Shown here piece after piece: positions 3-48,967 of a stretch of DNA of 64,000 nucleotides. Each line of letters starts with the position of its first letter. Positions within the stretch are counted from its first letter, which is position 1. This DNA comes from Candidatus Heimdallarchaeota archaeon (GTDB taxonomy: Archaea; Asgardarchaeota; Heimdallarchaeia; Hodarchaeales; Hodarchaeaceae). Where the stretch lies: assembly GCA_020353515.1 (NCBI GenBank), contig CP070695.1, forward strand, positions 3,161,532-3,225,531, given 5' to 3'. The position numbers were made by a program, and so were the translations under genes. Under the pieces are notes generated by a model, which saw nothing but the letters and a program-made list of their open reading frames with translations, was not told the DNA's origin and ran no database searches.

Positions 3-851
3 ACTCATGAAGGAGAAGTGTGGGATTACCGTCTAGGACAGAAAAGAGTCGTAAAGAATCAAGTTCTTCCAATTATCGCTGTCCCTACTACAGCAGGCAC
101 TGGATCCGAAGTCACACCAATGGCAGTAATAAAAAATCCTGATGAGAAGTTCAAGTCTGCCCTTGCTGATTGGTCTCTAACCCCAAGGGTTAGTATAATT
201 GATCCTGAACTTACCCTGACCCTTCCACCGTATATTACTGCAGCAACTGGTTTTGACGTTTTTTGTCATGCATTTGAAAGTTTTTTACATAAAAGTGCTT
301 CAGATTATGTCGATCTTCTCGCTTTAGAGGCAATAAGACAAGTGATTAATCATCTTCCAGTTGTTGTTAAAGATGGGTCAAACAAAGAGGCAAGGGAGAC
401 GATGTCTTGGGCAAGCACCCTTGGGGGGATGTGTATTACAAATGCGGGGACTACACTAGCCCATGGAATTGGTATGGCTATTGGAGGGCATGTTACAGAT
501 GTAATGCATGGAGAAGCACTAGCTGCTATATATCCGACAGTGAACCAGTGGACGTGGAAACATGCAAAATCAAAATATGCAACAGTAGGTAGAATGTTTA
601 ATCCTGATTTGAAAAATGAATCTGATGAAGTGGCAGCAGAAGCATCATGCTATGAAATGGATGCGTTTCTGAAAAAAATTGGTTTATGGATGAATTTGAG
701 GGAGCTAAACGTGCTTGAAAATCAACTAAAAGCAATTGGGGCTGATACAATGAAACTCAAAAACTATACTGTTCATCCTAAAGTCCCCACCCTTTTAGAA
801 ATAAACAATCTTATTTTAGCAAGCTACATGGCTGTGTTGGAGGGCTATTAG
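3..851 (+). CDS. Iron-containing alcohol dehydrogenase, 5'-partial at the window edge; last codons probably come from a fused Rab relic
   Basis: AVPTTAGTGSEVT, IIDPELT, TAATGFDVFCHAFES, TLAHGIG and HGEALA motifs; frame is open back to position 3. Confidence 0.93.
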   Translation, partial: THEGEVWDYRLGQKRVVKNQVLPIIAVPTTAGTGSEVTPMAVIKNPDEKFKSALADWSLTPRVSIIDPELTLTLPPYITAATGFDVFCHAFESFLHKSASDYVDLLALEAIRQVINHLPVVVKDGSNKEARETMSWASTLGGMCITNAGTTLAHGIGMAIGGHVTDVMHGEALAAIYPTVNQWTWKHAKSKYATVGRMFNPDLKNESDEVAAEASCYEMDAFLKKIGLWMNLRELNVLENQLKAIGADTMKLKNYTVHPKVPTLLEINNLILASYMAVLEGY

Positions 852-1189
852 TGTACGATGTCACTCGTCCTGATTCGTTTCACAACATGCCTAAGTGGAT
901 TAACGAACTGTGGATAAATAATGGACGCGGTCGTGTACCTATTGTTGTAGTCGCAAATAAAATTGACTTGTGTAGTGGAGGAGATTCCACGATTTCTCGT
1001 GATCAGGGTTGGTCTTTTACTAAGAGTCTGAGTAATCTTACTAAACCTGCTGGATTTCTATGTCATTTTATTGAAACGTCTGCTAAAACTGGAGTAAATA
1101 TCTCTCAAGCTTTTTCATTACTAGGCACAAATATTGGGAAGTTCATAGAAAATCATCGAAAGACTCCCTTATTGGCATCTTACCTATGA
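830..1189 (+). pseudogene. C-terminal half of a Rab-like small GTPase (G1-G3 missing)
   Basis: Reads GCVGGLLVYDVTRPDSF...VVANKID (G4)...ETSAK (G5) from 830; upstream is ADH sequence with no P-loop. Confidence 0.85.
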
Positions 1190-1213
1190 TGAAGAACACA
1201 GAATTCAAAGAAA

Positions 1214-1241
1214 TATACTCACTAGCTTATACTCACTAGCT
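1214..1241. repeat. Perfect 14-bp tandem duplication (TATACTCACTAGCT x2)
   Basis: Read directly. Confidence 0.9.
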
Positions 1242-1548
1242 TTTTCCCTTATTTGATGTTTATAATCCGTCCCTGTCATTTCTACTCACCTCATTTGCTT
1301 CATTCTTCTGTTTCTTAGTAGTCAGGCTTATATACAAGTTTTTCTGACTGGAAGTTTCGGAGTAGATGAATCTCTGTCTTAGATTCTGATACTCCTCTGT
1401 TATACTCTAAACCGAAGACTCAGGAAGTTAGAATGACTTGCTATGACTTCAAGTGAAAACCTGGGAAATATTGAAAACTTCTAATTGCAGGTCACACTAA
1501 GAAATGAGAAAGAAACCCCTGATTTCAAGCACTTGTTAGGAGGAATGA

Positions 1549-1785
1549 ATGGTGAGAATAACCTACCCAAAGGAGCTCAAATGTCCATCGTGTAAATCAG
1601 TCATTCGATTGGATTATAGTGGTAAATATACCGCGGCAACTGATGATTTACTGGTTATGATGATAAGTGTTCCTTGTAGTACAAACTCTGCAAAGGATAT
1701 GAGAAAAAATAAGCAGGATATAGGAACTGGTCTCCCCAGCTTTGTCATTTGTCAAAGTTGTCAAACGATATTAGGCACTACGTGA
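1549..1785 (+). CDS. Small zinc-ribbon protein
   Basis: CPSC...CQSC pairs; AGGAGG Shine-Dalgarno-like motif upstream. Confidence 0.7.
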   Translation: MVRITYPKELKCPSCKSVIRLDYSGKYTAATDDLLVMMISVPCSTNSAKDMRKNKQDIGTGLPSFVICQSCQTILGTT

Positions 1786-1841
1786 GCATAATAGATAAAA
1801 TCGTATTAGTTGGTGATGGTGGGGTCGGTAAAACATCATGA
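1782..1841 (+). pseudogene. N-terminal relic (beta1 + P-loop only) of a Rab-like GTPase
   Basis: GTG-S-I-I-D-KIVLVGDGGVGKTS-stop; GTGA overlap with the upstream stop; absent from the ORF track. Confidence 0.8.
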
Positions 1842-2076
1842 TGAAGAACACAGAGTCCTCTGTTATACTCAAAATCGCCTTATTCTGTACCCCTACACGT
1901 AGGATCTTTCGATTCTTTGCTTTCTCTAATGCATCCCATATTTCATTTATTAAATAGCAATCCTCTTTATTATAAGTAATACTCAATTCATACTTCCTTA
2001 TATTCATTTTCAAGAGATCAGTTTGCTCAATAAGGAGAAAACATCCAAAGCAGAATATCACTAGAATAAACACCGT

Positions 2077-2505
2077 CTACGTTGGCTCAATAGAGTGCTG
2101 AATGCGAATAATGACAAATTCTGCAGGCTTAAGGGGTGCTAACGCAACCACTATATTGACTATACCATTATTCTGGTCTTCTTGTGTGGTTATTTCAGCA
2201 TCACACTTGACATAGAAGGAATTAGATAGCATATCGCCTTGGAATGCGCCATCGTCAAATAATCCCATCATAAACGTGGTGATACTAGCTCGTATTGAGG
2301 CCCAGGTTGACTCGTCATTAGGTTCAAAGGTTACCCATTTGGTGTTCCTTTCCAGTATCTCCATACTCTCTGGAGGCCCCACATCATAATAAGGGCATCG
2401 GTCTGGACAGTTCTCGTTCCATACTTTCATCAACAAACAGTACGCTAGCATCTCATCGGTTTTTTTCACTAGAAACAAACACTCGCGGTAGATTGGTCTC
2501 TACAA
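2077..2505 (-). pseudogene. Chimera: Cys-rich host-protein N-terminus fused to a contractile tail sheath C-terminal domain
   Basis: TKWVTFEPND...GAFQG...FYVKCDAEITTQED...GIVNIVVALAPLKPAEFVIIRIQ is the tail-sheath C-terminal signature; N-terminus aligns with 48036-48341; codon 2 (2500-2502) is TAG. Confidence 0.8.
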
Positions 2506-2839
2506 CTTTCTAGTTACATTTTGTCCTAGCTCTATTGTCGCCTTACTACGATATTTCCCCTATGGCAACTACATCTATCTTTCAGAATGGAGAAGCGTGT
2601 ATGAGTAAGTGATTTCGTCACTGGAGCGGAGCTTTTCTTCAGGATCTATTAGTGGAATTTTCATTCCTAGATAATGTCGTTACTAGCTCAGTAATATCGT
2701 AAATGAACACTACTGAGATCGAAATCTTCCTCGGAATTTAGGAATTTGAGATCATCTATTTTCAAATTATCTGCCTTTATGGTGATGTATTTAAGGTATA
2801 ATATGTCAAGATACCTTATAAAAATTATAGGGGAAAGAA

Positions 2840-5379: not shown

Positions 5380-5628
5380 CAATTCCAATATCCATGATAA
5401 TTGTTTTCCCTGTTCCATTTTCACCAAGTAAATAGGAGATCTCGCCCTTCTTGACACATAAGTCAAGATCTTTTACTGCAAAAACTGCCACTTGATCCTT
5501 TTCAAAGTATTAGCCTTTAAAACCTTTCAGGATCTTTAAGTTTAATTTTCATGAGTAAATAAGCCTCTAGGGAATAACTACTAGGAGTGATTTTTTGTTG
5601 TAATTTTTTCTCTGTGGAGTTGTCTCCC

Positions 5629-7785
5629 ATGAGTGATAGTATTCCTTCTTTTCATTTCGAACACATTCCGCTCAATGTGGATCGTTCCAGTATTAATGTC
5701 TTTCAGCACGCGAAAGAGACTTTTTCGTTTGAATATTCGATTTTTGACCCGAAAACTGTCCATATCCATATGTATCCTAACAAACGTGGCTGGTTTCGTA
5801 AGAAAGGTCTAGATACAGGTATCGCCACCATCCAACAGTTTGCGACAGCTATGGGATTACACCCTGATTTTCATCAGATTCAACCCACGGCGATTCATAA
5901 AGTATTGGACATTCTTTCGACGTCCTTTCAAATTGGTTTGGATGGCCCACAGTTCTTCTGTGGCGGAGTCTTAGGTTTTGAAGGATCCGCGGAACCTCCG
6001 ATTACCACAGCAGATGACTTCACTAATGACATCCTTGAGATTCTGACCGATAATCCACAATTTGCGTTCCTTCAATTCATTTTCAAATCCGTCAAAGTCC
6101 CCAAGGAGTATCGATCTGACGAGGAACCTGACCGGCATCTGAGCCATGTTCGTTTTGACATCCAGCATGGAAGAGTTGAACGCCGTTTTCAGCCTCAACG
6201 CATGAATATCATGGAGGAAACAGGGTGCTTTAAGTTCTCTCCTCGGATTTTGGTTGTGGAAAAGACCCCTGAAGTCTTGAAAGCGAAGCTGGATCGCTTA
6301 ACTGTCTTATTTGTTTCCAAAGGTCTTAAAGTTCGCTCCTATCCATCCTTTTTCCGACGGTTTGCCTCCTTCAAGAATCTGTGTATTTCTCGTAAACTTG
6401 TCTCCCCTATAGTCCTGGATGGTTCTTCATTGATGAGTTTTATTTTTCCTCCCCAGCGGCAATTCTGTCATGATGGATACACCCTTGTTCCTAATAAAGC
6501 TGATTACCACCTTTCCACAGGTGTGAGTGAAACCTCTCCGCACCATGCGATCAACCTTGGCATTCCCATCATTAGTGGAAAAACTTCTGATGTCCCCTTA
6601 CTGATTGATGGTAAAGATCTCTGCCGACACATGGCCGTCTTTGGTATGACTGGTGAGGGTAAGAGTCGGTTTATTTATGGGTTAATTCAGGAATTTCATC
6701 AAAAAGGGGTCAATTTTCTCATTTTTGATCCGAAAGGGGAGTATCTTTCTCCCATCAAGACATTTTGTGATGATTTTCTGTACTTAAAACCTGGATCTAC
6801 CTCCTTCCCCTGGGGGATCAACATCTTCCAAATTCCCTTGAATGATGCAGGTCAACCTCTCATCCCTGTTGAAGACCACATTCAATTTGTAGTTTCTATT
6901 CTGGAACATATTTTCGATAATGAGGATGCAGTGTCTCCCCAGATGCGTCGTATGCTCCACCTGACGGTTATTCAGACCGTGAAAGACCAGGGAGACTTTC
7001 GGCGGTTTCTCTTCTACTTGGAGAATCCCGATGAGCTAGGCATGAAGGGCTCGTATCTTGAGAATACTGCGGCAGGCATCATGAATCGTGTGGAGAAGCT
7101 CTTTTTTGGCAACACGGGGCGCTGTTTCACGGTTTCTAAGACCACCTTTGAGGTCGCCAACCTCCTTGATCGTAATGCCATCATTGACCTCTCTGCGTTT
7201 GAGGCTATGGAGGATCAAAGTGGTCGCGAGATCTTTCTGAATGTGGTCTTTCAAAACTTGTACTATTATGTCCGTACGTTCCGTGCTCCCTTTAAAGAAG
7301 AATCACTGCCCAAAAACGTCTTCGTTCTGGATGAGATCCAAAAGCTCGCTCCTGCGAAGAATTTCCGTTCGAGGTCTCCTGAGACTATGATTGGTCGTGG
7401 TCCTTGGACATTACGGGCATATGATATCTCCATGATCTTTATTGGTACCGAACCGATTATTGACCAACCCATGCTGACCAATACTGGATTATTGACACTC
7501 TTCTTCACAAAATTCAATCCTTTTGAAGTGGCAAATCTTTTGGGTGTTCCTAAGGAAGAATATGAGCTATTACGTCAGCTATTAAAAGCTAAGCGAGATG
7601 AACGCCGCTGTATCATTTCTGTCAATGGGCAAATTTCCCTTTTAAAGACCAATGAATTTCATCTAGATCCTAACTTCTCTTTGGATTTAGATGAGCTCTC
7701 TAATCGGTCTTTTCAGAAGCATTTACAGGAATCCTATCACCAGTTGTATTTCAATCCTATTCAGGAGATTCTCACTAAAGATTGA
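5629..7785 (+). CDS. HerA/FtsK/VirB4-superfamily (DUF87-like) ATPase
   Basis: RHMAVFGMTGEGKS Walker A, IFDPKGEY, FVLDEIQ Walker B; start chosen at ATG 5629. Confidence 0.88.
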   Translation: MSDSIPSFHFEHIPLNVDRSSINVFQHAKETFSFEYSIFDPKTVHIHMYPNKRGWFRKKGLDTGIATIQQFATAMGLHPDFHQIQPTAIHKVLDILSTSFQIGLDGPQFFCGGVLGFEGSAEPPITTADDFTNDILEILTDNPQFAFLQFIFKSVKVPKEYRSDEEPDRHLSHVRFDIQHGRVERRFQPQRMNIMEETGCFKFSPRILVVEKTPEVLKAKLDRLTVLFVSKGLKVRSYPSFFRRFASFKNLCISRKLVSPIVLDGSSLMSFIFPPQRQFCHDGYTLVPNKADYHLSTGVSETSPHHAINLGIPIISGKTSDVPLLIDGKDLCRHMAVFGMTGEGKSRFIYGLIQEFHQKGVNFLIFDPKGEYLSPIKTFCDDFLYLKPGSTSFPWGINIFQIPLNDAGQPLIPVEDHIQFVVSILEHIFDNEDAVSPQMRRMLHLTVIQTVKDQGDFRRFLFYLENPDELGMKGSYLENTAAGIMNRVEKLFFGNTGRCFTVSKTTFEVANLLDRNAIIDLSAFEAMEDQSGREIFLNVVFQNLYYYVRTFRAPFKEESLPKNVFVLDEIQKLAPAKNFRSRSPETMIGRGPWTLRAYDISMIFIGTEPIIDQPMLTNTGLLTLFFTKFNPFEVANLLGVPKEEYELLRQLLKAKRDERRCIISVNGQISLLKTNEFHLDPNFSLDLDELSNRSFQKHLQESYHQLYFNPIQEILTKD

Positions 7786-7907
7786 GCCTTTTCAAGATAA
7801 GAAACACTTTATTGAGATGCATTTTTCATTATGATAACCTTTACATCCATAGCATATTTTATATCACCCTTCCTAATTCATTGAATCATGGTGAGGTGAA
7901 CTCAATT

Positions 7908-9956
7908 ATGAATGCTTCATGTTTTAACTTTTTACAAAGAATTAAAACCCTAAGACCGTTCATTCTACCTATAATTGTATTAATACTTTTTTTTGGAGTG
8001 TACATGCATTCCAATAAGAATTTCTCCTCACTAACACCTACTCCTCCAAATGATTGTCACGTTCGTGTGGACGGAGCTCTTTATACTGACCATGATGTCA
8101 TTTACATTTCTGGTAACCAGCATTTCCATACACAGGCAGCCGCAGAAGGATGGCCTGGTAATGGTACTCCTTCGAACCCATATATAATCAGAGATTTGAG
8201 AATTGAGAAATCAGGTGTTTCTTGGACTGAAGATTATCTCATCGATATTCGTAATGTTGATGTTTTTTTCTCCATTACTGAGTGTTTATTGATTGGATTA
8301 CTGAATGATCCTGATACTAAAGAAGGAATCCACTTTCAAAATACAACAAATGGCTGTATAATCAATAATACTCTTTTAATTGATCATAGAAGTTATTATG
8401 ATAGTATTCGTCTAGAGTCATCCCAACATAATGTTATTACAGATAATTTAATTTTTCGGCAAGATACCACATTTCACACCCTTGGAATAGCGATTAATTT
8501 ACAAGATTCGAATAATAACATCATCGCGAGAAATTCTATATTTAACCATTCTTACGGTATTTATGTAACTTCCTCTCATCATAACAGTATTTGTGAAAAC
8601 ACGGTATATGACAATAGACAGTATGGGATAATTACCGAAGACTCAAATGAAATTATGATAGAGAATAATTATGTCTATAGAAATTATTGGACGGGAATTT
8701 ATTTATCTGAATCAACTAATTGCTCATTACTAAATAATACTGTTTTTAAGAATGGACACAGTGATGATGATGGTGTTCATGGTCGTGGAATTGGAATGGA
8801 TTCATATCACACCTCTCTCATTAATAATACTGTAAAAAATAACTATGGGGATGGGATAACTATGGGATGGGGGGGTTCAAATAACCTCATTTTGAATACT
8901 CATGTTGTGAATAATTCCGGATATGGGATTCGTTTACGAAAATTGCTAAATTCCACAATCAAAAATGTCAATGTTCTTAACAATCACCAAAGTGGAATAA
9001 TTATTCAAGGATCTCATTCTTGTTTGATTAGCGAATCACTTTTCTCGAAAAACGAGGGTAATGGAATTTGGATAGAGGATGAAAGCCAAGAGTGTACAAT
9101 CTCCAATAATACAATTTCTGAGAATCAGAAAAATGGGATTTATATTTACACCTGTGACAGAATCTTCTGTTTCAATAACAAAGTGCGAAACAATGACAAA
9201 TATGGGATTTCCTTAGAGGATTCACAAAATATTGCGGTTTATTTCAATAATTTCATCGATAACAATCCAGATGGAGGTTCACAGGCCGAGGAATACCAAT
9301 TTTTCTATCATTATCATTTTTCAACCAATGGTGGATATGGATATTATTATGTTGAAGATGTTAGTAAACTTTCTAATGTTTTTACCCATAACTTTTGGTA
9401 TGATTGGCGGACTCCAGATAATAATAATGACAGTATCGTTGATTTCCCATACCCTATTGACGGAAACATTGACAGTTTTGATTGGGATCCTTTAATATCG
9501 CCTTATAATTCTTCTTCCTTTCATATCATGTCAGTTCCACAGATTTTATCCCCGAAAGGAGGAGGATTATATTCAGGGACGATTCACATTACTTGGCTTC
9601 CAGTAGTTGATTCTTTTAGCCACGAGATCACTTATACCCTCTTTTATTCTGATGATGCTGGAAAAACTTGGATATTAATGACGATTGTCCAGAATGTCAA
9701 CTCATACACGTGGCAGACGACTTCTTTACCTGACGGAAAGGACTACTTGATCAAAGTGGTTGCTAATTGCTCTGAAGGCCTTATATCAGAATTTATTATT
9801 TTGGATGAATTTTCAATCAATAATTCACTGATTAACTCAACCTTTCAATCAGCTGATAAGAGTAATCAATCAATTCAAGTAACCATTGAATTTTCACTCG
9901 TCATTTTTATCGTAGCTTTAACCTATTCTTCCTATTTAAATAGAAAACGGAATTAA
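7908..9956 (+). CDS. Surface protein with NosD/PbH1 parallel beta-helix repeats, an Ig-like domain and a C-terminal TM anchor
   Basis: GWPGNGTPSNPYII cap, repeated NNxIxxN..GI motifs, QILSPKGG..IHITW domain, hydrophobic tail + RKRN; GAGGTGA before ATG 7908. Confidence 0.88.
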   Translation: MNASCFNFLQRIKTLRPFILPIIVLILFFGVYMHSNKNFSSLTPTPPNDCHVRVDGALYTDHDVIYISGNQHFHTQAAAEGWPGNGTPSNPYIIRDLRIEKSGVSWTEDYLIDIRNVDVFFSITECLLIGLLNDPDTKEGIHFQNTTNGCIINNTLLIDHRSYYDSIRLESSQHNVITDNLIFRQDTTFHTLGIAINLQDSNNNIIARNSIFNHSYGIYVTSSHHNSICENTVYDNRQYGIITEDSNEIMIENNYVYRNYWTGIYLSESTNCSLLNNTVFKNGHSDDDGVHGRGIGMDSYHTSLINNTVKNNYGDGITMGWGGSNNLILNTHVVNNSGYGIRLRKLLNSTIKNVNVLNNHQSGIIIQGSHSCLISESLFSKNEGNGIWIEDESQECTISNNTISENQKNGIYIYTCDRIFCFNNKVRNNDKYGISLEDSQNIAVYFNNFIDNNPDGGSQAEEYQFFYHYHFSTNGGYGYYYVEDVSKLSNVFTHNFWYDWRTPDNNNDSIVDFPYPIDGNIDSFDWDPLISPYNSSSFHIMSVPQILSPKGGGLYSGTIHITWLPVVDSFSHEITYTLFYSDDAGKTWILMTIVQNVNSYTWQTTSLPDGKDYLIKVVANCSEGLISEFIILDEFSINNSLINSTFQSADKSNQSIQVTIEFSLVIFIVALTYSSYLNRKRN

Positions 9957-9973
9957 TATCTACTTTCAAGTCC

Positions 9974-10342
9974 TCAGTTATCCTTAACACCCGTGCCTTG
10001 GAGGTTTATTGTTTTGTCAGTGGAACATTCCTTGCAATAATAGATCGTTTCTTTTTTTGCTTTTGGGCCTACAATAGCACCAGCACCAGCATTCCACAAG
10101 CAGAGGCACAAACACACGAGAAGTGATAAAGTATAGTTTGTTTTTTTGGTCTGATATTCCCAAATTCTCTTTTCCCCATCCTCAAAACACATTGGTTTCT
10201 GGCATGTAAAACATACTTTGTCTGCTGTTCTATCTGGATGGTAATGACAATATCGTGTTTCTAACTCTCTCCCACATTGAATGCAGGTTGTAGCAAATTC
10301 TTTATTGGTAAATTTACACTCTGGACAAATCTTTGGTTTCAT
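9974..10342 (-). CDS. Double zinc ribbon + B-box-like zinc finger with an internal Cys-rich hydrophobic segment
   Basis: CPEC/CIQC, CHYH..CFTC..CFED..LLVCLCLCLW..CKEC. Confidence 0.78.
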   Translation of the reverse strand: MKPKICPECKFTNKEFATTCIQCGRELETRYCHYHPDRTADKVCFTCQKPMCFEDGEKRIWEYQTKKTNYTLSLLVCLCLCLWNAGAGAIVGPKAKKETIYYCKECSTDKTINLQGTGVKDN

Positions 10343-10439
10343 TCACCGACCCTTATCGAAAGATGGATATTATAGCTTATTAACCCTCCTCCTAAAATTC
10401 AGTTGCTAATAAAGTGCAGTGAAGACCAACTACGAAGTT

Positions 10440-10628
10440 ATGACAGCTCAAAGCCTCTTCCTCCCTAAGAACGTGTTTCTCGCTCATGAGTTCTTTTTAC
10501 GAGCATTTCACTTAGATCAACAGGGGCACTGGGAGGAAGCTCAAAAAATGTATTTCAAATCAGTGAAGATCTTTACTGCCCTTACCAAGAAATTTCCTGA
10601 TATGTCGTTATTTTATGATTCAATGTAA
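10440..10628 (+). CDS. Short MIT-domain-like protein (possibly truncated)
   Basis: LAHEFFLRAFHLDQQGHWEEAQKMYFKSVKIFTALTKKFPD resembles MIT helices 1-2. Confidence 0.5.
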   Translation: MTAQSLFLPKNVFLAHEFFLRAFHLDQQGHWEEAQKMYFKSVKIFTALTKKFPDMSLFYDSM

Positions 10629-10996
10629 TTGCTCAATACATAAGTCTAGTATTTGTCAGTATCCTCGGTTGTCTCCTAGTTGGGAGGAGGAGTAAGGATA
10701 ATACTATGGATGAATTTAAGGAATAATTCCAAAGTTGATTTGATTTCATAAGGAGGTTTTTGTAAACCAATTTTTATGAAACGGGTGCGTCAATGATAAC
10801 CTTTAAAAAATTATTCCACCTTTTAATACTGATTTACAATGCTAAGTAAGAAATACCTTACTGTTATCGTTCCAGTATTGCTATTTCTTCTCTCATACCA
10901 AGGAATGATCATTATTTGATTCTGTATTTTATTAGTATTAACTTAAGTGAGTGAGGAAACATGGTAAGGGAAAGGCGTTGGTTGAAAGGGATTAAG

Positions 10997-13147
10997 ATGA
11001 AGATCAGTAAATCCGTTGCTAAACCCCTAGCTCTAATTTTGACTTTGACTTTGGTGTATAATGTTGTTGGTAGTGTTTCAGCACATGATGAGTTAACCCC
11101 ATTCTTTTCCCTACACTTACTGGCTCCGACTAACAACCCACTCAGAATGCAATATGCGCAATTATTTGAAGCGGAATTTGCTAAAATTGGGGTCGATGTA
11201 GAATTAGACCTTGTTGCGTGGTCCGCTATAGGGCCTCGATGTTACTATGATGAGGCTGGAACCTACTTAGAAGGCGGGTATGATATGTTTTGCTTGGGTT
11301 ATTCCTATGCCCCATCCGCATCCATGCCCCAGCCAGGTTACCAGCTTAGCTATTTCTTTCATAGAAACTCTATCCCTCCTTTTGGATTCAACGTAATGAT
11401 GTGGAGTAACAATTCTGCTGATTATCTGACAGATCGAGCCAGTGAACAATCAGATCTTATCGAGAAAATCTATCAAGAGGTATCTCAGGTAGAGGCGAGA
11501 AAAATATTTGTTGAATGGCAAAAAATTCTCTATGATGTCAGTCCTCTACTAATTGTGTTAAATGAAATGGACTTCCACGCAGTATCTACTGGGCTTTATG
11601 GGTACGACCCCACTGGTTACCCTATTGCCTCTGCTGAGGATCAGTGGCTCACAGATGATTACACAGGGACCGCTGGGAAAGTAGTTCTTGGAACTTCTTA
11701 TTCTGGTACAAAATTTTTCGATTTCCTTGGGAGATCTATTTACGATCAATACATTGCTGGACCTGTTCAAGATGCACTCGTCGGGAACACCCCATCTAGG
11801 GAAATGATTATTCCTCCTGATGTTGATCGTGACACCTGGATGAATGAACATTATCATGATGTTTATGGGACAAGTGGATACCTAGAGCGCTATCCTCGGA
11901 TTGCTACCGCAATGGGAACATATTCTGCAGAAAGTCTCCAATATAACATTTCTATTAGAGATGATGTCTACTGGCACGATGGTCATCAAGTCGATGGCTG
12001 GGATGTTGCCTTTGGCTTCCAAGCAGAACTCCAACCAGATGCAGGATCTTCTTCATATTCAACTCTGAAAACAGAATTTGGTTACGATGATAAGGCAAAT
12101 AAGCATGGTAATTACTCTTTCACCATAACAGATGAAGATAACGATGATTTCTACGAAACAGTTGTCTTTAATTTCAACCAAATCTACACTACATTCGTCC
12201 CTACCGATCTAGGGATATCTATTAAACCTGAACATATCTTGGGAGACCCAGATACTCATGGTTTCGATGCTGCAGGTGATTTTGATGTGAATCTGTGGCA
12301 AGTTCATCCTACCGATTGGGTCACACATTCAATGAACACTGCAAACCCAGATGATGAAGGTGGTTATAAAGGGCCTATTGGTTGTGGGCCCTTGGTCTTC
12401 TATAATCGTGATCCCACAAGTAAGGTTGTAACACTAAAGAAGTTTGATGGGTGGATGTGGGATCACACTACAAAAGCTTGGGTAGAAAATGTCACCAACA
12501 GACATTTCCATGCCAAAGACGGCCGATTAGATCATATGCCTGAAACCTTCACCATAGTTCCAAAAACAGAAAACATTGCTTTTACTGAGATAAAGAAAGG
12601 CGAAGTGAACTTGATAGATCCAATGTTAATCGAGAAAACCAGTTTTGCTGAAATACAAGCCGATCCCACTATTAATGCAGTTTTAACTGCCGAAATTGGC
12701 TGGGAAGCGCTGTTTTTCAATCCAAAATATGTTGATGCTGCAGGCATTCATCACCTCAAGAAGAAAGGAGTTCGTCACGGGATTTCCCATGCAATTCCAA
12801 GAGAGGACATCATCGAATACCTACTACACGGGCAAGGAGCACCTGGATACACTCCCGTACCGATTCAGAGTTGGGGGGCTATTGATCCTGAAGATCTGCT
12901 ACAATATAAGAAAACAGTTGTTGCCACGGATGGGTCGAGACCAGAGGCAATAGAAAGAACTCATTATGACTCATATAATCTGAGTCTTGCACTCGATTGG
13001 TTTGAAACGGAGGGGTATGATGTACAACCTTACAGAAAGGCTCTGAATAGACCCCCCACTCCCAGTTTTATCCCAGGGTTCGGTATCGTGATTGCATTCA
13101 TCGCTTGTGTTGGTCTTGCCATATTTCTGAGCAGAAAACAGCATTAA
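10997..13147 (+). CDS. ABC peptide/nickel solute-binding protein (family 5), apparently circularly permuted, with a PGF-type C-terminal anchor
   Basis: Signal peptide; IRDDVYWHDG..DVAF, GPIGCGP, VRHGISHAIPREDI; IPGFG + TM + RKQH. Confidence 0.88.
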   Translation: MKISKSVAKPLALILTLTLVYNVVGSVSAHDELTPFFSLHLLAPTNNPLRMQYAQLFEAEFAKIGVDVELDLVAWSAIGPRCYYDEAGTYLEGGYDMFCLGYSYAPSASMPQPGYQLSYFFHRNSIPPFGFNVMMWSNNSADYLTDRASEQSDLIEKIYQEVSQVEARKIFVEWQKILYDVSPLLIVLNEMDFHAVSTGLYGYDPTGYPIASAEDQWLTDDYTGTAGKVVLGTSYSGTKFFDFLGRSIYDQYIAGPVQDALVGNTPSREMIIPPDVDRDTWMNEHYHDVYGTSGYLERYPRIATAMGTYSAESLQYNISIRDDVYWHDGHQVDGWDVAFGFQAELQPDAGSSSYSTLKTEFGYDDKANKHGNYSFTITDEDNDDFYETVVFNFNQIYTTFVPTDLGISIKPEHILGDPDTHGFDAAGDFDVNLWQVHPTDWVTHSMNTANPDDEGGYKGPIGCGPLVFYNRDPTSKVVTLKKFDGWMWDHTTKAWVENVTNRHFHAKDGRLDHMPETFTIVPKTENIAFTEIKKGEVNLIDPMLIEKTSFAEIQADPTINAVLTAEIGWEALFFNPKYVDAAGIHHLKKKGVRHGISHAIPREDIIEYLLHGQGAPGYTPVPIQSWGAIDPEDLLQYKKTVVATDGSRPEAIERTHYDSYNLSLALDWFETEGYDVQPYRKALNRPPTPSFIPGFGIVIAFIACVGLAIFLSRKQH

Positions 13148-13167
13148 CTGAAGTAGACATTCTCGCT

Positions 13168-13340
13168 TCATAGGCTTTTCATTTCATCATTCGATTGTAA
13201 TAATGACTGTACATTCCCTATTGCATCTACTTTTCCATCTTTTAGCACAATTATTTGATCTGCTTTTTGTAAGACCATTGGTTTATGTGATACAACAAGG
13301 TATGTCTTTTGTTTGGGGTAGTTAAACAACCAGTCTAAAG
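13168..13340 (-). pseudogene. 3' relic of an ABC exporter ATPase domain
   Basis: KTYLVVSHKPMVLQKADQIIVLKDGKV H-loop region only; no Walker motifs. Confidence 0.8.
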
Positions 13341-13381
13341 ATTTGTTTATTATTTTAAAATATGACTTGCTTGCCATAGGC

Positions 13382-13801
13382 TCACTTTAGCCAAGAATAC
13401 AGCATCATCTTCTCAAGTAATGAATCACTTCCAAGGCCTAGGGTGGGAAGTAGTTCAGGTTTGATTTGAGATAAAACCTCAGGGAGGGGAGTAGAATCAG
13501 GTAAGTTTAGCATACCTCTAACTGCGGTTATTTCTACCAAAAGGACATTTAATTGATCATAATCAGGATCTTTTATGTTAAAAACCATTCGGATTTCTTC
13601 AAATCGTTTAAAAATATAGACTAGATCATCTATGGGAGTTTGGGGAGCTAGTCCTAAATCAGATTTCATCTGTTTCAAAGAACACCAAAGTTGATTTACG
13701 GCATGATCAAATAAACGGTCATCTAGTTTTAAAATAATTCTTAGCTTTTTTAGCTCTTCCAATTTTCTTAATTCATTTGATAACATATCATTAAGAAACA
13801 T
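13382..13801 (-). CDS. Hypothetical helical protein
   Basis: 139-codon ORF with two LxLxxxTP-like internal repeats; no family recognised. Confidence 0.55.
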   Translation of the reverse strand: MFLNDMLSNELRKLEELKKLRIILKLDDRLFDHAVNQLWCSLKQMKSDLGLAPQTPIDDLVYIFKRFEEIRMVFNIKDPDYDQLNVLLVEITAVRGMLNLPDSTPLPEVLSQIKPELLPTLGLGSDSLLEKMMLYSWLK

Positions 13802-14441
13802 TCTTATCCAACCATCTCATTATTGGTCAGTTGAAATTCATTCCATTATTTAGGGTCAAGAGTGTCTCTGTATGAAATGACACACTCCTCATTGATATAC
13901 CTATAACATTTACAAAAGTGACACTTATTATTGAGAAATGTCAAAAACAATGCAAGTTAAAAAGGAAGAATAATGGGCTCTGAATCCTAAATGAACTATA
14001 CTTTCAGAGTAAATTTCAGTTTAAAAATAGAAATCTAGCGTTTGAAAGATTTTCAAATCCTGTTTTTCTCCTTCTATATTCTGTGCCAGTTCCAACAGAT
14101 CCCTATGGATGTTACGAAAAATACTCATTTCGTTATAGAAACTACGAAGATATTCACTTCCATCTAGACTTTCTGGAATGTCCTTAGTCACCTCCTCCCA
14201 GTCAATTGAAACTCTTACATATTTATCTCGTACCTCTTCCTTCGAAGGGGGTGTCGGAAGGCGGAGGCCACGGGTGGACTGGGTTGGTCTCTCAAGGAGT
14301 CGCTCTGAGACGGAACAGGTACTCAGCTTTCGCCATTCTTGTATCGGTCAGATGGCGATGAAGAACTTGCATCAGGATTTCAAGTAATGATCGCTGTAAT
14401 AACAATATTAGGGGTTGTAATATCACGATGGAGATTCAGAT

Positions 14442-33631: not shown

Positions 33632-33652
33632 ACTACCTCTGTTAGATCGTGG

Positions 33653-33674: not shown

Positions 33675-33778
33675 TTACTAAATTCAAATGAATGTTGCTT
33701 TAAATGTTGTTAATATCATATCTTCTGTATTGTATAATTTTTTAAACAATTATTCACTATTGAAACTGAGGATAGGGA

Positions 33779-34474
33779 TTGTTCTTTAACCAGATTAAAC
33801 ACCAAGGTTGTATCTTCTTCTTACTTTGCGTACTTATTATTTCATCTGGGGGCTGTTTACAAGCCTTCGCGAGAGCTATCCAAGAGGAGTGGCAGATCCA
33901 GGTGGGGGATTCCCAAACCTATATCTATGATGATTTTTATGAGGTTTCTTCCGATAATTCCTCTGAATACATTTATTGGATTATAGATGAAAACAATAAC
34001 AATGTTACCATAATTCTCAAAAAAGGATTAACTCTTCGTTATGATATTACATTCCTCGATCCAGATGAAGCAAGAGGAACAATAACATATAATGGAACCA
34101 TTACTAGTTTAGAACAATCTCTCTCATCTCGTACCTATTCGGGGTGGACTGGAATCGTTAGACCTTCAATTAACAATAAAAGTTATTGGGAGGAATATTG
34201 TAGATTCCGGGGTCTGGAAAACGTTACGGGTGATTTCATCGTTATGGAGATTAATACAGATATTATAAATCAAATTTCCATATGGAACTGGAAAACAGGG
34301 TGGCTCAACTACTATTATGAGATGTATTGGAATGACACAACAATTATCTCGTTGAGGGAAATCTCTCTTGTCCCTCAGGAAAATGAACCGCCTCCTCCAT
34401 TAAATGTTATTGTTGGGGGTTTCATCTTAGTATTCATCATTCTTATTCTTGTAGGAATTAAGAAATTTAAATAG
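33779..34474 (+). CDS. Secreted protein with a C-terminal TM anchor
   Basis: Signal peptide, WQIQVGDSQTY, Pro linker, TM + KKFK. Confidence 0.8.
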   Translation: MFFNQIKHQGCIFFLLCVLIISSGGCLQAFARAIQEEWQIQVGDSQTYIYDDFYEVSSDNSSEYIYWIIDENNNNVTIILKKGLTLRYDITFLDPDEARGTITYNGTITSLEQSLSSRTYSGWTGIVRPSINNKSYWEEYCRFRGLENVTGDFIVMEINTDIINQISIWNWKTGWLNYYYEMYWNDTTIISLREISLVPQENEPPPPLNVIVGGFILVFIILILVGIKKFK

Positions 34475-34720: not shown

Positions 34721-34742
34721 TCTTCTCCGAAAGTGTTTTATT
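34721..34742 (+). promoter_or_regulatory. BRE/TATA-like element, copy 2; plausible promoter of the flavoprotein gene
   Basis: TCTTCTCCGAAAGTGTTTTATT about 40 nt before the TTG start. Confidence 0.55.
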
Positions 34743-34779
34743 CCACTTTTCGAATGAAATACTACTGGAGGAAATAAAT

Positions 34780-36152: not shown

Positions 36153-38126
36153 GTGAGAAGGAACAGAACCAGTTTCTCAAAAATTATGTTGCTAATAGCT
36201 ATTTTCTTGCTTCATCTGAGTATCAATTTCTTTCCAGTCCCAATTAGTTTCTCAGACTCGTCAGTTTTAGCAGACAGATCAATTTTACAGAATTACACAG
36301 CACATGATCCCATTCAAATCACTTCCGACGCTCAACTAGCTGCTGTGGCGACTCGTGGCACAGGAACGGCTAGTGATCCCTATATTATTGCTAATTGGAA
36401 TATTACTGGGTCTCCAACTTTTGGTATTTCCATAATGTGGACAACGAAGTCTTTTAGAATTGAAGATTGTTGGATTGTTGATTCTACTTATTCTGGCATT
36501 CATGTGTTTGATATTGCCTCAGGTACAGCGACTATTAGCAAGAACATTTGTCATAACAATGGTGATCATGGTATCTCCCTTGAAAATGCTAATTCATCTA
36601 TTGTGATCAACAATATCTGCACTAGTAATCATAATGGTATTTTCCTAGAGGATTCTCCTTCTTCAATTGTCGTCAACAACACCTGTAACAGAAATTATAA
36701 TGGTATTTTCTTGGAGTGGTCTACTTCTTCAACTGTCGCCAATAATACCTGCGATAGCAACGAAAGGAGTGGCATCTGGCTTATTATTTCTGATTTTTCG
36801 GTCATAGCTAACAACATTTGCACAAATAATTCAATATTTGAGTATGCTGCTTGTGGGATCTATCTTTCTTCTTCTGGTTCTTCGACTGTTGCCAACAATA
36901 CCTGCAACAATAATCGTTATGGCATTTTCCTTGATAATGCTTATTCTTCGACTACAGTTAACAACATCTGCACCCACAATAGGATTAATGGTATCTATAT
37001 TAGTTTTTCTGATTCTTCAAGCGTAACCAACAACACCTGCAGCAACAATGATTATGGGATCTCCGTTGTCTCTTCTGATTCTTCAACCATTACCAACAAC
37101 ACCTGTACCAACAATGGGGATGGTATCTCTATAGGTTATACTTATTCTTCGACTGTCACCAACAATACCTGTATTAACAATGATTGGATTGGTATCTACC
37201 TTGAGTATTCATATTCTTCGACTGTAACCAACAACACCTGCAGCAGCAATGGTTGTGGGATCTACCTTGACACTTGTGGTTCTTCAACTGTAGCTAACAA
37301 CATTTTCGTCAATGATGGGATGTATTTAGTCGCATCTTCTAAAAGGGATTTACTCTCGTGTACAGTGGATAATAACACGGTTAATAACCTCCCTCTGGGC
37401 TATTTCGAGAATCTGACTTATAGTACGATCATTGGGGCTTATGGACAGCTTATCTTAATAAATTGTAACAAGATAATAGTGAAAAACCAAGACTTCTCTG
37501 ATACCTCTATAGGAATCGCTCTGTATTATTGTAACGAGAACCAGTTAATCAACAACACCTGCAACAGTAATAGTTTATCTGGTATCATCCTTTCTTCTTC
37601 TACTTCGTTAACTGTGGATACCAACACTTGCAACAACAATGATGAAAATGGTATCCGTCTTGACGGCTGCAGTTCTTCGGTTTTAACACACAATACTTGT
37701 AATAGCAATACTGATTGCGGGATCTACCTTGGTAATTCAGAAAATAGCTCTATTGTTTGGAATACATTACGTAGGAATGGTGGTTACGGGATCAAATTAT
37801 CTTTTAGTAATAATAATTCTATTCACCACAATACGTTTATAGAAAATGGGGAGAATAATCCACAAGCATATGATGGTGGCGCGAACAATCTATGGTATGA
37901 CGAGACAGCCTTGGAAGGGAATTACTGGTCCGATTATAATGGAGTTGGGAGTTATTTAATTGCTGGGCCTGCTGGAGCTTCCGATCCTTATCCCTTTTAC
38001 GATCCAGATTTCACGAAAGAAATAGATTTGAGTAGGTTTCTTTCCCTTTTAGTACGAGTTGGCTTATTCTTGGGTATTCTTGGGGTATTAGCAGTGTCTA
38101 TTTTCCTTAGTAGACGCCAAAACTGA
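36153..38126 (+). CDS. NosD/PbH1 beta-helix surface protein with a C-terminal TM anchor
   Basis: GTGTASDPYII cap, many 22-23 aa SSTVxNNTCxxN..GI repeats, GNYWSDY, TM + RRQN. Confidence 0.9.
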   Translation: MRRNRTSFSKIMLLIAIFLLHLSINFFPVPISFSDSSVLADRSILQNYTAHDPIQITSDAQLAAVATRGTGTASDPYIIANWNITGSPTFGISIMWTTKSFRIEDCWIVDSTYSGIHVFDIASGTATISKNICHNNGDHGISLENANSSIVINNICTSNHNGIFLEDSPSSIVVNNTCNRNYNGIFLEWSTSSTVANNTCDSNERSGIWLIISDFSVIANNICTNNSIFEYAACGIYLSSSGSSTVANNTCNNNRYGIFLDNAYSSTTVNNICTHNRINGIYISFSDSSSVTNNTCSNNDYGISVVSSDSSTITNNTCTNNGDGISIGYTYSSTVTNNTCINNDWIGIYLEYSYSSTVTNNTCSSNGCGIYLDTCGSSTVANNIFVNDGMYLVASSKRDLLSCTVDNNTVNNLPLGYFENLTYSTIIGAYGQLILINCNKIIVKNQDFSDTSIGIALYYCNENQLINNTCNSNSLSGIILSSSTSLTVDTNTCNNNDENGIRLDGCSSSVLTHNTCNSNTDCGIYLGNSENSSIVWNTLRRNGGYGIKLSFSNNNSIHHNTFIENGENNPQAYDGGANNLWYDETALEGNYWSDYNGVGSYLIAGPAGASDPYPFYDPDFTKEIDLSRFLSLLVRVGLFLGILGVLAVSIFLSRRQN

Positions 38127-46198: not shown

Positions 46199-46263
46199 TT
46201 AACATGGTACTGATTGTTCATCCCCAATCCACTTGCGCATTCGGCGGAGGGCTCAATCGCGTC
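46199..46263 (-). repeat. Orphan diverged copy of the LuxC-like gene 3' tail
   Basis: DAIEP(L)RRMRKWIGDEQSVPC* vs DAIEPLHRMCKWIMDEKSISY* (48361-48426), one 1-nt deletion. Confidence 0.85.
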
Positions 46264-46408
46264 TGACAACTATTGAGACAAAAACGACGCAATATTTTCC
46301 CTTATCTCCTGCTTTCATCAAATGATCGAAAAACTAGTACAGAATGTTCTAAAACCTAGGCTATTAAACTCACTCTTCTTTTGCATAATTGTCCTTTTGG
46401 AGGCTATC

Positions 46409-48013
46409 ATGGTTATTATCTATAAAAATAAATCTTTTTTGTTGGTTTTTCAGATTTTCCTCCTCATCGGTTTACTCCCCTTAAGTAACGTCTTTAGTAT
46501 AGATGAACATACGTCCCATGCTCAATATAGTCAAAGACAAACTAGAACTAAATTATTAGATTTCAAAGGATGCAGTGTGTTAAAGCATTCTAATCGTGAT
46601 CGGCAAAACCATGAGCTCTTAACTTCTCAAAATACGCAAAAAGTGTCTAAGAACATGGATACGCACGAAGTTGGCTATCAACGAACCTTCTGGATCTGGG
46701 ATTTCGAAGATTTATCTCACTATGAAATAAATGCGACAATACTTGCAGTAGGCGAGTATAGTTATATTTTCATGGAAAATGTTTGTATATCAGACCTAGG
46801 AGAATCATTTGCGATTGAATATTCCGAGTCCATACGTGACGAATTTGATAGCACAATTTTTCCTCGAGTTACTGATTTGGCTGGACATCCCAATGGAACA
46901 TTAGGAGATATTGATAATGATCCTAGAATTATTATTCTACTCGCTCGGGAATTGGTATCTTACTATTCCCAGAGAAACGAACAGGAATTGGAGTATTCGA
47001 ACCAATGTGAGATGTTTTATATCTACTATAGATTGTTTCAATGGCCTTACCGTGTTTTTCAGGCAATTGCACATGAATTTCACCACTTAATATGGTTTAA
47101 CAACGAAATGGATGAACCTCAATTCATCCTAGAGGCATTAGCAGAATATGCCATGTATCATAGTGGGTACCTAGCGCCTTTTGGCAACATCAGCTCACGA
47201 ACCAATGATTTCCTTTCACATCCGGAAGATTCTCTTCTGCATTTTAATATTGATAGTGAGGAAGGATTAACTAGAGCTATTGATTACGGAGGTGGCTATT
47301 TATTTGCTTGCTATATCGCTGAACACTACGGAGTGGATATCCTCCGAAACCTGATAACTGAATCGGCTGATGGGCCTATAGGACTTGAAAACGTTCTAGA
47401 AATGGCTGGTTATAATATCTCTTTTAATGAGCTTTATCTTGATTGGATCACAGCTGTGACAATTAATGAGTTAGGATTTAGTGATAACCTCTACGGCTTT
47501 GAGAATCTAAACGCCCGAATTTCTAGATATGATCTTGTTCACGAACTTCCCCTTGTCAATGAAACTATTCCACTTCGCTATTATGGGTTCCACATTTATA
47601 AATTGGAATCCCCACCTAATAATTTCGCAGTGAAAATTAACAAAGCCTCATATCAGACATTAGGTGTCTCCATTGCTTTTCATGACACCGCTGGTTGGCA
47701 TATTCACCAATATCTTCATGATGAAAGGGAGATTCAGGTCACTGATCACCTTCAAGGAAATTCAATTGATGTAGCATATGTAATAACAAGTTTTATATCA
47801 GGGAATACCCCCATTGTAACCCGTCCTAATTATGGACTTGGACCATTGATAGACATTGAGATCTCTATAATCCAGACACCTACTCAAACTAATACTACTA
47901 CACATCAGACTTCCAAAAGTACTACAACAGATGTTTCTACTGGTTTGAATGGAGTAATAGTATTAATTACCTTTGCTACTGTTTTGATTATTCTTCTAAA
48001 GAGCAGAGATTAA
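46409..48013 (+). CDS. Secreted zinc metallopeptidase (HExxH; M30/M6-like) with a Thr-rich linker and TM anchor
   Basis: DIDNDPRIIIL, IAHEFHHLI, ILEALAEYA; GGAGG before ATG 46409. Confidence 0.85.
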   Translation: MVIIYKNKSFLLVFQIFLLIGLLPLSNVFSIDEHTSHAQYSQRQTRTKLLDFKGCSVLKHSNRDRQNHELLTSQNTQKVSKNMDTHEVGYQRTFWIWDFEDLSHYEINATILAVGEYSYIFMENVCISDLGESFAIEYSESIRDEFDSTIFPRVTDLAGHPNGTLGDIDNDPRIIILLARELVSYYSQRNEQELEYSNQCEMFYIYYRLFQWPYRVFQAIAHEFHHLIWFNNEMDEPQFILEALAEYAMYHSGYLAPFGNISSRTNDFLSHPEDSLLHFNIDSEEGLTRAIDYGGGYLFACYIAEHYGVDILRNLITESADGPIGLENVLEMAGYNISFNELYLDWITAVTINELGFSDNLYGFENLNARISRYDLVHELPLVNETIPLRYYGFHIYKLESPPNNFAVKINKASYQTLGVSIAFHDTAGWHIHQYLHDEREIQVTDHLQGNSIDVAYVITSFISGNTPIVTRPNYGLGPLIDIEISIIQTPTQTNTTTHQTSKSTTTDVSTGLNGVIVLITFATVLIILLKSRD

Positions 48014-48035
48014 TCTATTCCTGAATAAATTACTA

Positions 48036-48341
48036 CTACTCATCAAAATAATGCTGCCAAAAATAGCAGGGTTTACACAAAGGGTTTTCCTGGGGATAAA
48101 GAGTACAATAATAAGTTGGAATTCTAGTTTCAGCTATTTGTCGTGTGAAATAATTACATGCAATGTCATACCCACTCTCTTCCACTTCTCTAAACCTCCC
48201 TTCCTCACCTCTAACGAAATAATTGCATCGAATAGAACAAGGATTTAGCTTATTGATCCAATATTTAAATTTAAGGCGGTATCCTGTTTTCTCATTTGAC
48301 TTAACAAGGTACAGACACGATTTAAAGATCATTTTCCTCAT
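48036..48341 (-). CDS. Small Cys-rich protein
   Basis: CLYL..CSIRCNYF..CNYF..YCTLY..CKPC; paralog of the N-terminus of 2077-2505. Confidence 0.65.
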   Translation of the reverse strand: MRKMIFKSCLYLVKSNEKTGYRLKFKYWINKLNPCSIRCNYFVRGEEGRFREVEESGYDIACNYFTRQIAETRIPTYYCTLYPQENPLCKPCYFWQHYFDE

Positions 48342-48360
48342 GTCTAGGAGGAAAGAGTTT

Positions 48361-48967
48361 CTAATATGATATGGATTTTTCATCCATAATCCACTTGCAC
48401 ATCCGGTGAAGGGGTTCGATCGCGTCTTGTGGAGTGGTGAAACTTCCATTGGGTGCAAATCCTAGAGATACAATTCTTTGGACACCGTGGAGGATTAATT
48501 CATCTCTGATTTGTTGCTTTAAAGACTCAGGGTAGATTCCAACGATCTGGGTGTAAGCATTTACTGATTGGAGTGCAGTTCGGACATCATCAATTGGTAC
48601 GAGATTTACCACTCGACCGCAGAGTTGATCTGAGAAATCTACAGGTTCATCCATCTGACTGACAATCACAGCTCCTTCGTTTTCGTGACCCCCAAATACC
48701 CGATAAAACATATCATCCTTTCGAAGGCCATCGATGTTACTTTTGAGATCTACGTCGAATTCTTTCGCAGGAGTGGAGACATGACTGGGAAGGTTTACTA
48801 ACGCGTAGTATAGGTAAGCTTCTAATTCATTCAATTTATCAATCCCCATATCGTCTGTTCCTGACTACATAGATCACTCGACTATTCACACAGGCTTCTT
48901 GATTGGATTCCCCAATATCAATCGCTACTCGTTGTGCAACTGTCCGCATCGTCTCCTCATTTTGGAA
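48361..48967 (-). pseudogene. Acyl-CoA reductase (LuxC-like) 3' relic with a frameshift near 48866
   Basis: AIDIGESNQEACVNSRVIYV then GAVIVSQ..GRVVNLVP..TQIVGIYP..GVQRIVSLG..PQDAIEP. Confidence 0.8.

Follow-up and report, generated by a model that had tools for sequence, protein, structure and literature searches.

We have examined a window of 64,000 nucleotides (the whole stretch of DNA that was analysed; positions 3,161,532 to 3,225,531 of contig CP070695.1) in the genome of a Candidatus Heimdallarchaeota archaeon (assembly GCA_020353515.1, here called G000), in which short direct repeats of gene tails, a gene flank or a promoter-like element, which we refer to as anchors, enclose unrelated genes, which we refer to as cargo. 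There are five such repeat sets, here named after the Rab, HerA-like, NosD-like and LuxC-like genes and after the promoter-like element. The window also contains genes that mark the Asgard archaea, namely genes for Ras/Rab GTPases, a gelsolin-like gene and an OST3/6-like gene. G000 is a metagenome-assembled genome (MAG) of short-read type with a size of 4.94 Mb, a G+C content of 35.8%, an estimated completeness of 96% and a contamination of 7.4%, in which 114 pieces have been joined by 113 spacers of 100 N. The pieces were concatenated, so that distances beyond a single contig carry no meaning. The window begins directly after one of the spacers and the next spacer is located 190 kb further on, and the whole window thus represents one contig.

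The comparison set consisted of 21 other species genomes of the genus. The nearest of these, G014, was about 80% identical to G000 overall, with identities of 77% to 84% in two control regions of 20 kb. The window was shared with G014 in patches only, and the gene order was not the same. It was also noted that some of the patches were unusually close to G014 when compared with the control regions: positions 1-826 at 94%, 30042-33691 at 89% to 90%, and 46299-48968 at 93.5%. These patches hint at recent exchange between the G000 and G014 species.

The five sets had been proposed from an earlier inspection of the DNA letters (the sequence-only reading), and all of them were recovered, every one in direct orientation. 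In whole-genome BLASTN and exact searches of the 4.9-Mb assembly, the best or sole partner of each anchor was located nearby, inside the window, and the repeat sequences were otherwise absent from the genome, with the exception of the LuxC repeat, of which one more copy was found in an intact, distant paralogue. Comparison of the window with itself yielded direct repeats only, the internal beta-helix repeats of one gene aside, and identified three more direct pairs (10329-10444/17045-17160, 18159-18349/37923-38107 and 2677-2725/28106-28154). The excess of direct repeats at short spacing that the sequence-only reading had predicted was also observed genome-wide: repeat pairs located 1-30 kb apart comprised 92 direct and 20 inverted pairs, and short low-copy pairs comprised 34 direct and 3 inverted pairs, whereas direct and inverted pairs were about equally frequent at larger distances. 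The repeat observation is far from chance. As had also been claimed, the anchors share no common core. The repeats exceed 30 bp in the promoter set (48 bp), the HerA set (71 bp), the NosD set (63 bp), the LuxC set (65-66 bp) and two loci outside the window that are described below, R1 (about 200-260 bp) and R4 (89 bp), whereas the Rab repeat of 17 bp falls below this 30-bp criterion.

The clearest case in the window is the promoter set, which consists of the following features.

33653-33700, plus strand: left copy of the promoter-like anchor, located just past the stop codon of the gene at 30125-33631.
33779-34474, plus strand: cargo X, a gene for a small secreted protein with a C-terminal membrane anchor, missing from the corresponding site in G014.
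34721-34768, plus strand: right copy of the promoter-like anchor, with the likely ATG (34786) of an FMN-reductase gene following about 65 nt further on.

The two copies are about 82% identical. A core of 22 nt occurs exactly twice in G000 and a single time in G014, and it is missing from the 20 other genus members that were searched. Contig C157 of G014 contains an empty site, in which the sequence corresponding to window position 33691 is joined to that of position 34706 through a single copy of the anchor, and the 1.0-kb region with cargo X is absent. A homologue of X with 74% identity was identified at another place in G014, where the flanks are unrelated. By our count from the alignment, the left, right and G014 copies carry 5, 6 and 4 private changes, respectively, which are interleaved, and this star-like pattern argues against the G014 copy being a simple product of crossover between two copies of the G000 type. 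The promoter set is best read as an additive insertion.

Eleven further loci, each with a short direct pair at close range that had emerged from the whole-genome comparison, were inspected, and the same architecture was observed at R1 (L063, within G000:C1:3235031-3241031) and R4 (L066, within G000:C1:873031-880031), which, like the window, are free of gaps. At R1, a repeat of about 200-260 bp that covers two convergent gene tails is present on both sides of a 2.1-kb insert with one SBP_bac_5 gene. Both neighbours, one a peptidase-M14 gene and the other a glyoxalase gene in convergent orientation, are intact. The empty site is found in G014 (contig C371), with one copy of the repeat and no insert. 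The R1 copies are 90% to 95% identical, as compared to about 81% between G000 and G014, and no other sequence in G000 exceeds 72% identity to the cargo. Since the repeats are younger than the species split and the cargo has no close paralogue, R1 was an addition, after the split, of DNA from outside the genome. Furthermore, the right copy, in which the spacer is 60 nt longer, resembles a second allele. At R4, the last 29 codons (an 89-bp tail) of an ArsR/TrmB-like gene recur past a two-gene insert of 3.5 kb, beside the original convergent neighbour, and the empty site in G014 (contig C422) again contains one copy and no insert. The live tail at R4 is nearly in the G014 state, whereas the relic bears 11 of the 13 changes that could be polarised in our alignment.

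The sequence-only reading had predicted that relatives should contain sites with one anchor and no cargo. Such sites were thus found in G014 for the promoter set, R1 and R4; the prediction failed for the LuxC set, and no empty site was found for the HerA and NosD sets. A target-cargo-target' structure that lacks a recombinase is accordingly both real and recurrent, as had been claimed.

This architecture is known from bacteria, in which insertion with long target duplication has been defined by genome comparison for restriction-modification genes (PMC2853133, Furuta, Abe and Kobayashi 2010); the original paper is given as Nobusato et al. 2000, Gene 259:99, in the reference list of PMC2869330. 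The features in common are direct repeats of more than 30 bp that vary in length, are unique in the genome and often lie over gene 3' ends, the lack of a mobility gene, and the alignment of both repeats to one single-copy sequence in a relative without the insert. As far as the pattern goes, every one of the defining features of this class is present in the promoter set and at R1 and R4. The differences are that the cargo here is ordinary (a solute-binding protein, a small surface protein and proteins without assigned function), that the host is an Asgard archaeon, and that the repeats are older, with identities of 80% to 95%. The survey of such insertions in PMC2853133 recovered no archaeal case. 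What is new is the host, a Hodarchaeales-type Asgard MAG, and the ordinary cargo only; the mechanism is not new in kind.

The HerA set spans the largest distance.

5587-7796, plus strand: intact gene for a HerA-like ATPase (Pfam DUF87/HerA), the last 20 codons of which, together with 11 nt (7726-7796), constitute anchor copy 1.
7797-21638: the 13.8 kb of DNA between the anchors, with NosD-like, zinc-ribbon, SBP_bac_5, PI-PLC-like and TPR/CN-hydrolase genes (Pfam) and more relics.
21639-21709, plus strand: relic of the HerA tail and anchor copy 2, with 19 codons, a stop codon and 11 nt, located within a stop-to-stop frame of 54 codons.

The two tails are 83% to 85% identical (E 2e-14) and have no other match in the genome, and all 8 coding differences between the live tail and the relic are located at third codon positions. 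The homology breaks off abruptly, with no similarity to HerA upstream of position 21639. No near-identical source for the relic was found among the genomes of the genus, the best match being the tail of G000 itself at 85%, and the identity profile of the HerA gene against G008, G011 and G014 showed no recombination breakpoint. The DNA between the anchors is for the most part without a close counterpart in G014. No empty site was found for the HerA and NosD sets, given that the G014 contig ends inside the HerA gene at window position 7302, so that the tail is not assembled there, and that the neighbouring genes are missing from the other species. The Rce1-like gene adjoining the HerA relic has an orthologue in G014 only, and a metagenome scan anchored on this gene yielded no more than two short contigs with 58% to 59% identity. 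In G008, the HerA orthologue is accompanied by fragments in the same orientation, comprising a head fragment (residues 4-79), a tail of 22 codons and a tail of 95 codons followed by a NosD-like gene; the genes between the fragments differ, and no integrase was found in this neighbourhood. The G008 region (G008:C37:68000-87999, L014), in which the HerA gene lies amid its head and tail fragments and several NosD-like genes, shows that the HerA neighbourhood is a hot spot in a second species as well.

Within the HerA interval are the features of the NosD set, the tail type of which is found in an intact gene further downstream.

10329-10444, minus strand: start and upstream region of a zinc-ribbon gene (9974-10342), which matches 17045-17160 at 73% identity (E 1e-12).
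16994-17160: composite relic, in which a NosD-type tail of 15 codons with stop codon and flank (16994-17056, plus strand) abuts a relic of a zinc-ribbon gene start and promoter (17045-17160, minus strand).
17213-18058, minus strand: cargo between the NosD-type tail relics, a gene for a secreted protein with a C-terminal anchor and no Pfam family.
18159-18383, plus strand: NosD-type tail relic of 69 codons with an 18-nt flank, 69% identical in protein sequence to residues 590-654 of the product of 36153-38126.
36153-38126, plus strand: intact gene for a NosD-like beta-helix surface protein (Pfam NosD/Beta_helix), which bears the tail type of the relics.

Both copies of the anchor (16994-17056 and 18321-18383; 82.5% identity, E 4e-11) are relics, and the longer segment at 18159-18349 matches the tail of the intact gene (37923-38107) at 72% identity (E 7e-23). 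The zinc-ribbon gene is convergent to the other NosD-like gene, located at 7782-9956. Because remnants of a NosD tail and of the start of the neighbouring gene lie directly side by side in it, the composite at 16994-17160 points to a two-gene module of NosD and zinc ribbon that has collapsed or eroded. The HerA and NosD sets probably represent older additive insertions or displaced tails, and both a displaced tail and an eroded paralogue are possible origins for their relics. The intact gene at 36153-38126 contains 13 or more internal repeats of 66-69 nt, and its orthologue in G014 is about 1 kb shorter.

The two remaining sets involve resident genes that have been truncated. The LuxC set consists of three features.

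46200-46264, minus strand: mini-tail relic of a LuxC-like gene, with 22 codons and an in-frame stop, decayed.
46322-48458: the genes between the LuxC anchors, two open reading frames (ORFs) of 563 and 140 amino acids that adjoin LuxC in G014 as well.
48362-48967, minus strand: LuxC-like relic with residues 286-487 only and one frame break (Pfam LuxC profile positions 283-401).

The mini-tail is 79% identical to 48362-48427 (E 6e-8), and one intact LuxC paralogue is located far away. The longer relic is 90% identical in protein sequence to this paralogue and is truncated at the 5' end. In G014 (contig C201), a full-length LuxC gene at the same locus is followed by the same two cargo genes, with 93.5% identity over 46299-48968, and the long copy is thus a recent 5' truncation of a gene that has been kept intact in G014. 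The mini-tail sits in a stretch of 235 nt, in place of which G014 contains about 50 unrelated nt. Since G014 has the cargo without the mini-tail, the cargo is independent of the second anchor. The mini-tail set is probably an older additive insertion or a displaced tail, with a displaced tail and an eroded paralogue again both possible.

The Rab set is located at the start of the window.

803-1189, plus strand: relic of the C-terminal half of a Rab/Ras gene, which matches the Pfam Ras profile over positions 78-160 only and is fused to an Fe-ADH gene end at 826/828.
1186-1202, plus strand: Rab stop codon and 3' flank, copy 1 of an exact 17-mer with only two occurrences in the assembly, both strands included.
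1782-1854, plus strand: Rab head of 19 codons with the P-loop (1782-1841), joined directly to copy 2 of the 17-mer (1838-1854).

The C-terminal half is 71% identical in protein sequence to another Rab of G000 that is intact (residues 99-219), and the head shares 88% to 91% identity with intact Rab genes of both G000 and G014. A single intact Rab gene in G014 covers both of the G000 pieces. Because these genes are intact in G014, the Rab pieces and the long LuxC piece are best read as made by deletion, and the proposal that insertion explains all five sets does not hold for them: both Rab relics and the long LuxC relic are truncations of genes that G014 has intact. At 826-851, the homology of the Fe-ADH gene to G014 ends 10 nt before the G014 stop codon, and the last 8 codons of the gene in G000 are read from Rab-derived DNA in another frame.

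The claim that the coding copies have diverged mostly at synonymous sites held for the HerA set only, whereas in the two short NosD tails and the LuxC mini-tail the differences are spread over all three codon positions. Taken over six pairs of a live and a relic tail, the differences at codon positions 1, 2 and 3 numbered 20, 10 and 42, respectively (p = 1e-5 against an expectation of one third; p = 0.016 against a rough 45%), and 5 of the 6 relics contained no internal stop codon.

No integrase or transposase family was identified in 50 ORFs of the window searched against Pfam or in 10 ORFs without assigned function searched against PHROGs, although very divergent recombinases might escape such searches, and none was found with the same databases in the insert ORFs of G000 or in the HerA-linked inserts of G008. 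The ends of the cargo also had no motif in common, with 22 shared 8-mers as compared to 22.8 in shuffled sequences, and no tRNA gene was found at the loci checked. The GC content of the cargo did not differ from that of the flanks.

We consider that the window is a hot spot of gene turnover at the start of a 190-kb contig, in which two ordinary processes have acted repeatedly, and we would give this explanation as a whole an even chance of being right. By the first process, one to several genes would be inserted at the end or the promoter of a resident gene, so that each side of the insert would carry 50-260 bp of the target while the neighbours stayed intact, and the spare half-copies would then turn into relics of gene tails or promoters. 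By the second process, deletion would cut resident genes and duplicated modules to stumps. The promoter set is a case of the first process, and the Rab pieces, the long LuxC piece and the composite of NosD tail and zinc-ribbon head are products of the second. The idea that gene capture accounts for the dense relics would thus hold for part of the stumps, whereas deletion or erosion would account for these three. For the first process we prefer a route in which the cell's own recombination acts on DNA from a related lineage, with no recombinase encoded by an element. One crossover in homologous sequence, combined with one illegitimate joint behind it, would bring in one copy of the anchor with the cargo, a process known as homology-facilitated illegitimate recombination.

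Alternatively, the second anchor could have been made on the spot, if a fragment were joined by two illegitimate joints or replication template switches, 20-260 bp apart and staggered on two genome copies, so that the stretch between them was duplicated. Selection would retain such events since both neighbours survive, as they have at R1, and the variation in anchor length (17 to about 260 bp), the lack of a sequence common to the anchors, the accumulation of nearly all changes in the R4 relic, and the star formed by the promoter copies and G014 are all in line with this scheme. We nevertheless find it unlikely, and import of the anchor copy is slightly ahead because of the excess of third-position differences, the 5 of 6 relics that are free of stops, the right copy of R1, which looks like a second allele in its entirety, longer spacer included, and the window patches with 89% to 94% identity to G014, as compared to 77% to 84% in the controls. 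The earlier suggestion that the DNA came from related genomes by recombination at short homologies is accordingly favoured by the pattern of codon positions, but no donor was found. A rather doubtful alternative is that all of the structures are the result of erosion, whereby direct tandem or segmental duplications (of HerA-NosD-zinc ribbon, LuxC and Rab) were hollowed out by deletion or replacement, and the cargo consists of native genes or later neighbours. Copies that lie close together in direct orientation are what tandem duplication classically leaves behind, and the composite relic, the head and tail fragments of HerA in G008 with one tail followed by a NosD-like gene, the intact LuxC and Rab genes in G014, two loci outside the window that resemble arrays with differential loss (L077 and L064), and the reported richness of Asgard genomes in tandem duplicates (PMC13247210) can all be seen in this light. 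However, G014 has exactly one anchor with contiguous flanks at the promoter set, R1 and R4, the R1 repeats postdate the species split and enclose cargo without a close paralogue, and erosion would require a duplication and two precisely placed deletions per site. A paralogous context or an intact gene in a relative, the marks of an eroded duplicate, were found for the long LuxC relic, the Rab relics, the composite at 16994-17160 and the HerA tail in G008, and for none of the promoter set, R1 and R4.

Prophages that integrate into the 3' end of a gene and supply a substitute tail, such as phage 21 and e14 in icd, leave duplicated tails with synonymous differences as their hallmark. The displaced tail of the HerA set likewise differs mainly at synonymous sites, but such elements have an integrase and a fixed attachment core, neither of which was found here. 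An origin of the sets from site-specific elements of this kind, with integrases that were lost or act in trans, is very improbable in view of the inserts from two species without an integrase, the lack of a shared anchor core, cargo-end motif or tRNA gene, and the observation that an insert may be one ordinary gene. The features of integrons (IntI, attI and a shared attC) do not apply either: the anchors are unrelated to each other, and the promoter core is present in only two genomes of the genus. It is equally hard to credit that the structures are artefacts of a strain-chimeric assembly. The contamination of 7.4%, the 114 N-joined pieces and two extra candidate loci located exactly at contig breaks would fit such an origin, but there are no gaps in the window, R1 or R4, the copies differ by 5% to 20%, so that an assembler would not join through them, and the cargo is missing from the entire G014 assembly, so that the empty sites there are not collapsed repeats.

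Several observations weigh against additive insertion by import as the main process. Of the five sets in the window, an empty site has been demonstrated for one only, and G014 carries the LuxC cargo yet has no second anchor. A donor sequence was found neither for the anchors nor for the cargo. The R4 relic with 11 of the 13 changes is as predicted by plain decay of a duplicate made at insertion, and tandem duplication with reciprocal loss fits L077 better than insertion does. The main caveat is that the junctions are those of a MAG assembly of short-read type, with 7.4% contamination and 113 spacers of 100 N.

The route that we prefer has parallels in other systems. Homology-facilitated illegitimate recombination has been proposed for the effector-immunity arrays of type VI secretion systems in a study (PMC5361080) in which the displacement of Rhs C-termini is also cited. 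The resemblance is that the process is integrase-free and additive, that one homologous anchor is combined with one illegitimate joint (here proposed), that the previous gene ends come to lie further downstream with their orientation unchanged, and that events can stack, as the two HerA tails in G008 might suggest. Those systems use one dedicated, conserved gene and carry toxin-immunity cargo, whereas the anchor genes here are arbitrary and no donor was found. For the repeat-flanked transposed genes of Arabidopsis, excision of a circle and re-insertion by homology have been proposed (Woodhouse, Pedersen and Freeling 2010, PMC2869330). In both cases, single genes are located between genic direct repeats that are single-copy at the target site in a sister species, but Arabidopsis is a eukaryote with intragenomic donors, whereas R1 has no intragenomic donor.

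Asgard archaea have large genomes by archaeal standards, which expand through gene transfer and duplication (PMC13247210). The entry of single genes without the machinery of mobile elements has rarely been shown locus by locus, and the three loci with an empty site in a sister species provide concrete and datable cases of integrase-free additive insertion in a Hodarchaeales-type genome. Such insertions account for part of the many gene stumps in this genome, and in annotation work, short, dead remnants of gene tails and second copies of promoters are to be expected beside accessory genes. The value of the observation lies in its breadth and in a testable mechanism rather than in a new kind of system. 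A wider and more doubtful proposition is that Hodarchaeales lineages routinely exchange single genes or small cassettes by host recombination, with any gene end or promoter serving as a landing pad that is duplicated on entry, and that the unit may leave as a circle by crossover between the repeats. If true, this would represent a general, integrase-free means of gene gain without damage to neighbours in the closest archaeal relatives of eukaryotes, and would resemble the repeat-flanked gene transposition of plants and flies.

Two minor features of the window are fragments of other genes.

2077-2478, minus strand: ORF that encodes no more of a contractile tail sheath than its C-terminal domain (Pfam Phage_sheath_1C), with no other tail gene near, and hence a gene stump.
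2677-2725, minus strand: extra relic that copies part of the tail (28106-28154) of a gene for a beta-lactamase-fold protein (28059-29816), with 82% identity, its sole match in the genome.

A crude genome-wide census of gene fragments yielded 70 C-terminal and 19 N-terminal pieces, in which relics are mixed with cases of domain sharing, and it was given no weight.

Most of the other loci with short direct pairs in G000 were set aside. L075, L076 and L080 were dropped since a 100-N spacer is located beside or near one of the repeat copies. Both copies at L078 lie within a 6-kb island specific to G000 and look like a duplicated promoter. R3 was uninformative because of a contig end or N spacer, and at R5 the relative was unclear. 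An ABC cassette elsewhere in G000 was colinear in all 5 relatives checked, with no empty site, in a comparison of a stretch that did not reach the left repeat, by about 200 nt.

L064 (G000:C1 3,928,825-3,945,715) reads as an apparent two-gene array with alternate losses rather than as an insertion. Its segments 1795-2073 and 18144-18685, located 16 kb apart, have a reciprocal layout, in which the live tail of gene 2 is followed by a relic of the gene 1 tail, and the live tail of gene 1 by a relic of the gene 2 tail. At L065 (1704-1785; G000:C1 about 4,497,534-4,497,615), an element of 65-80 nt with no tRNA according to ARAGORN is 87% to 98% conserved in G011, G008 and G033, whereas its flanks are not. 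L077 (4155-4640; G000:C1 about 2,633,654-2,634,139) contains an element of about 480 nt that recurs several times per genome throughout the genus, and the first 52 nt of this element correspond to the repeat at that locus; G008 gave five matches, four of them on contig C52, with a length of 483 nt in one case and partial length in the others, and G011:C49 gave four. Finally, a dense family of intergenic direct repeats of 55-225 nt was observed at about 3,074,500-3,106,700 of G000:C1 (window coordinates -87,060 to -54,840), the members of which are 79% to 95% alike, share a single orientation and are spaced 0.7-15 kb apart.

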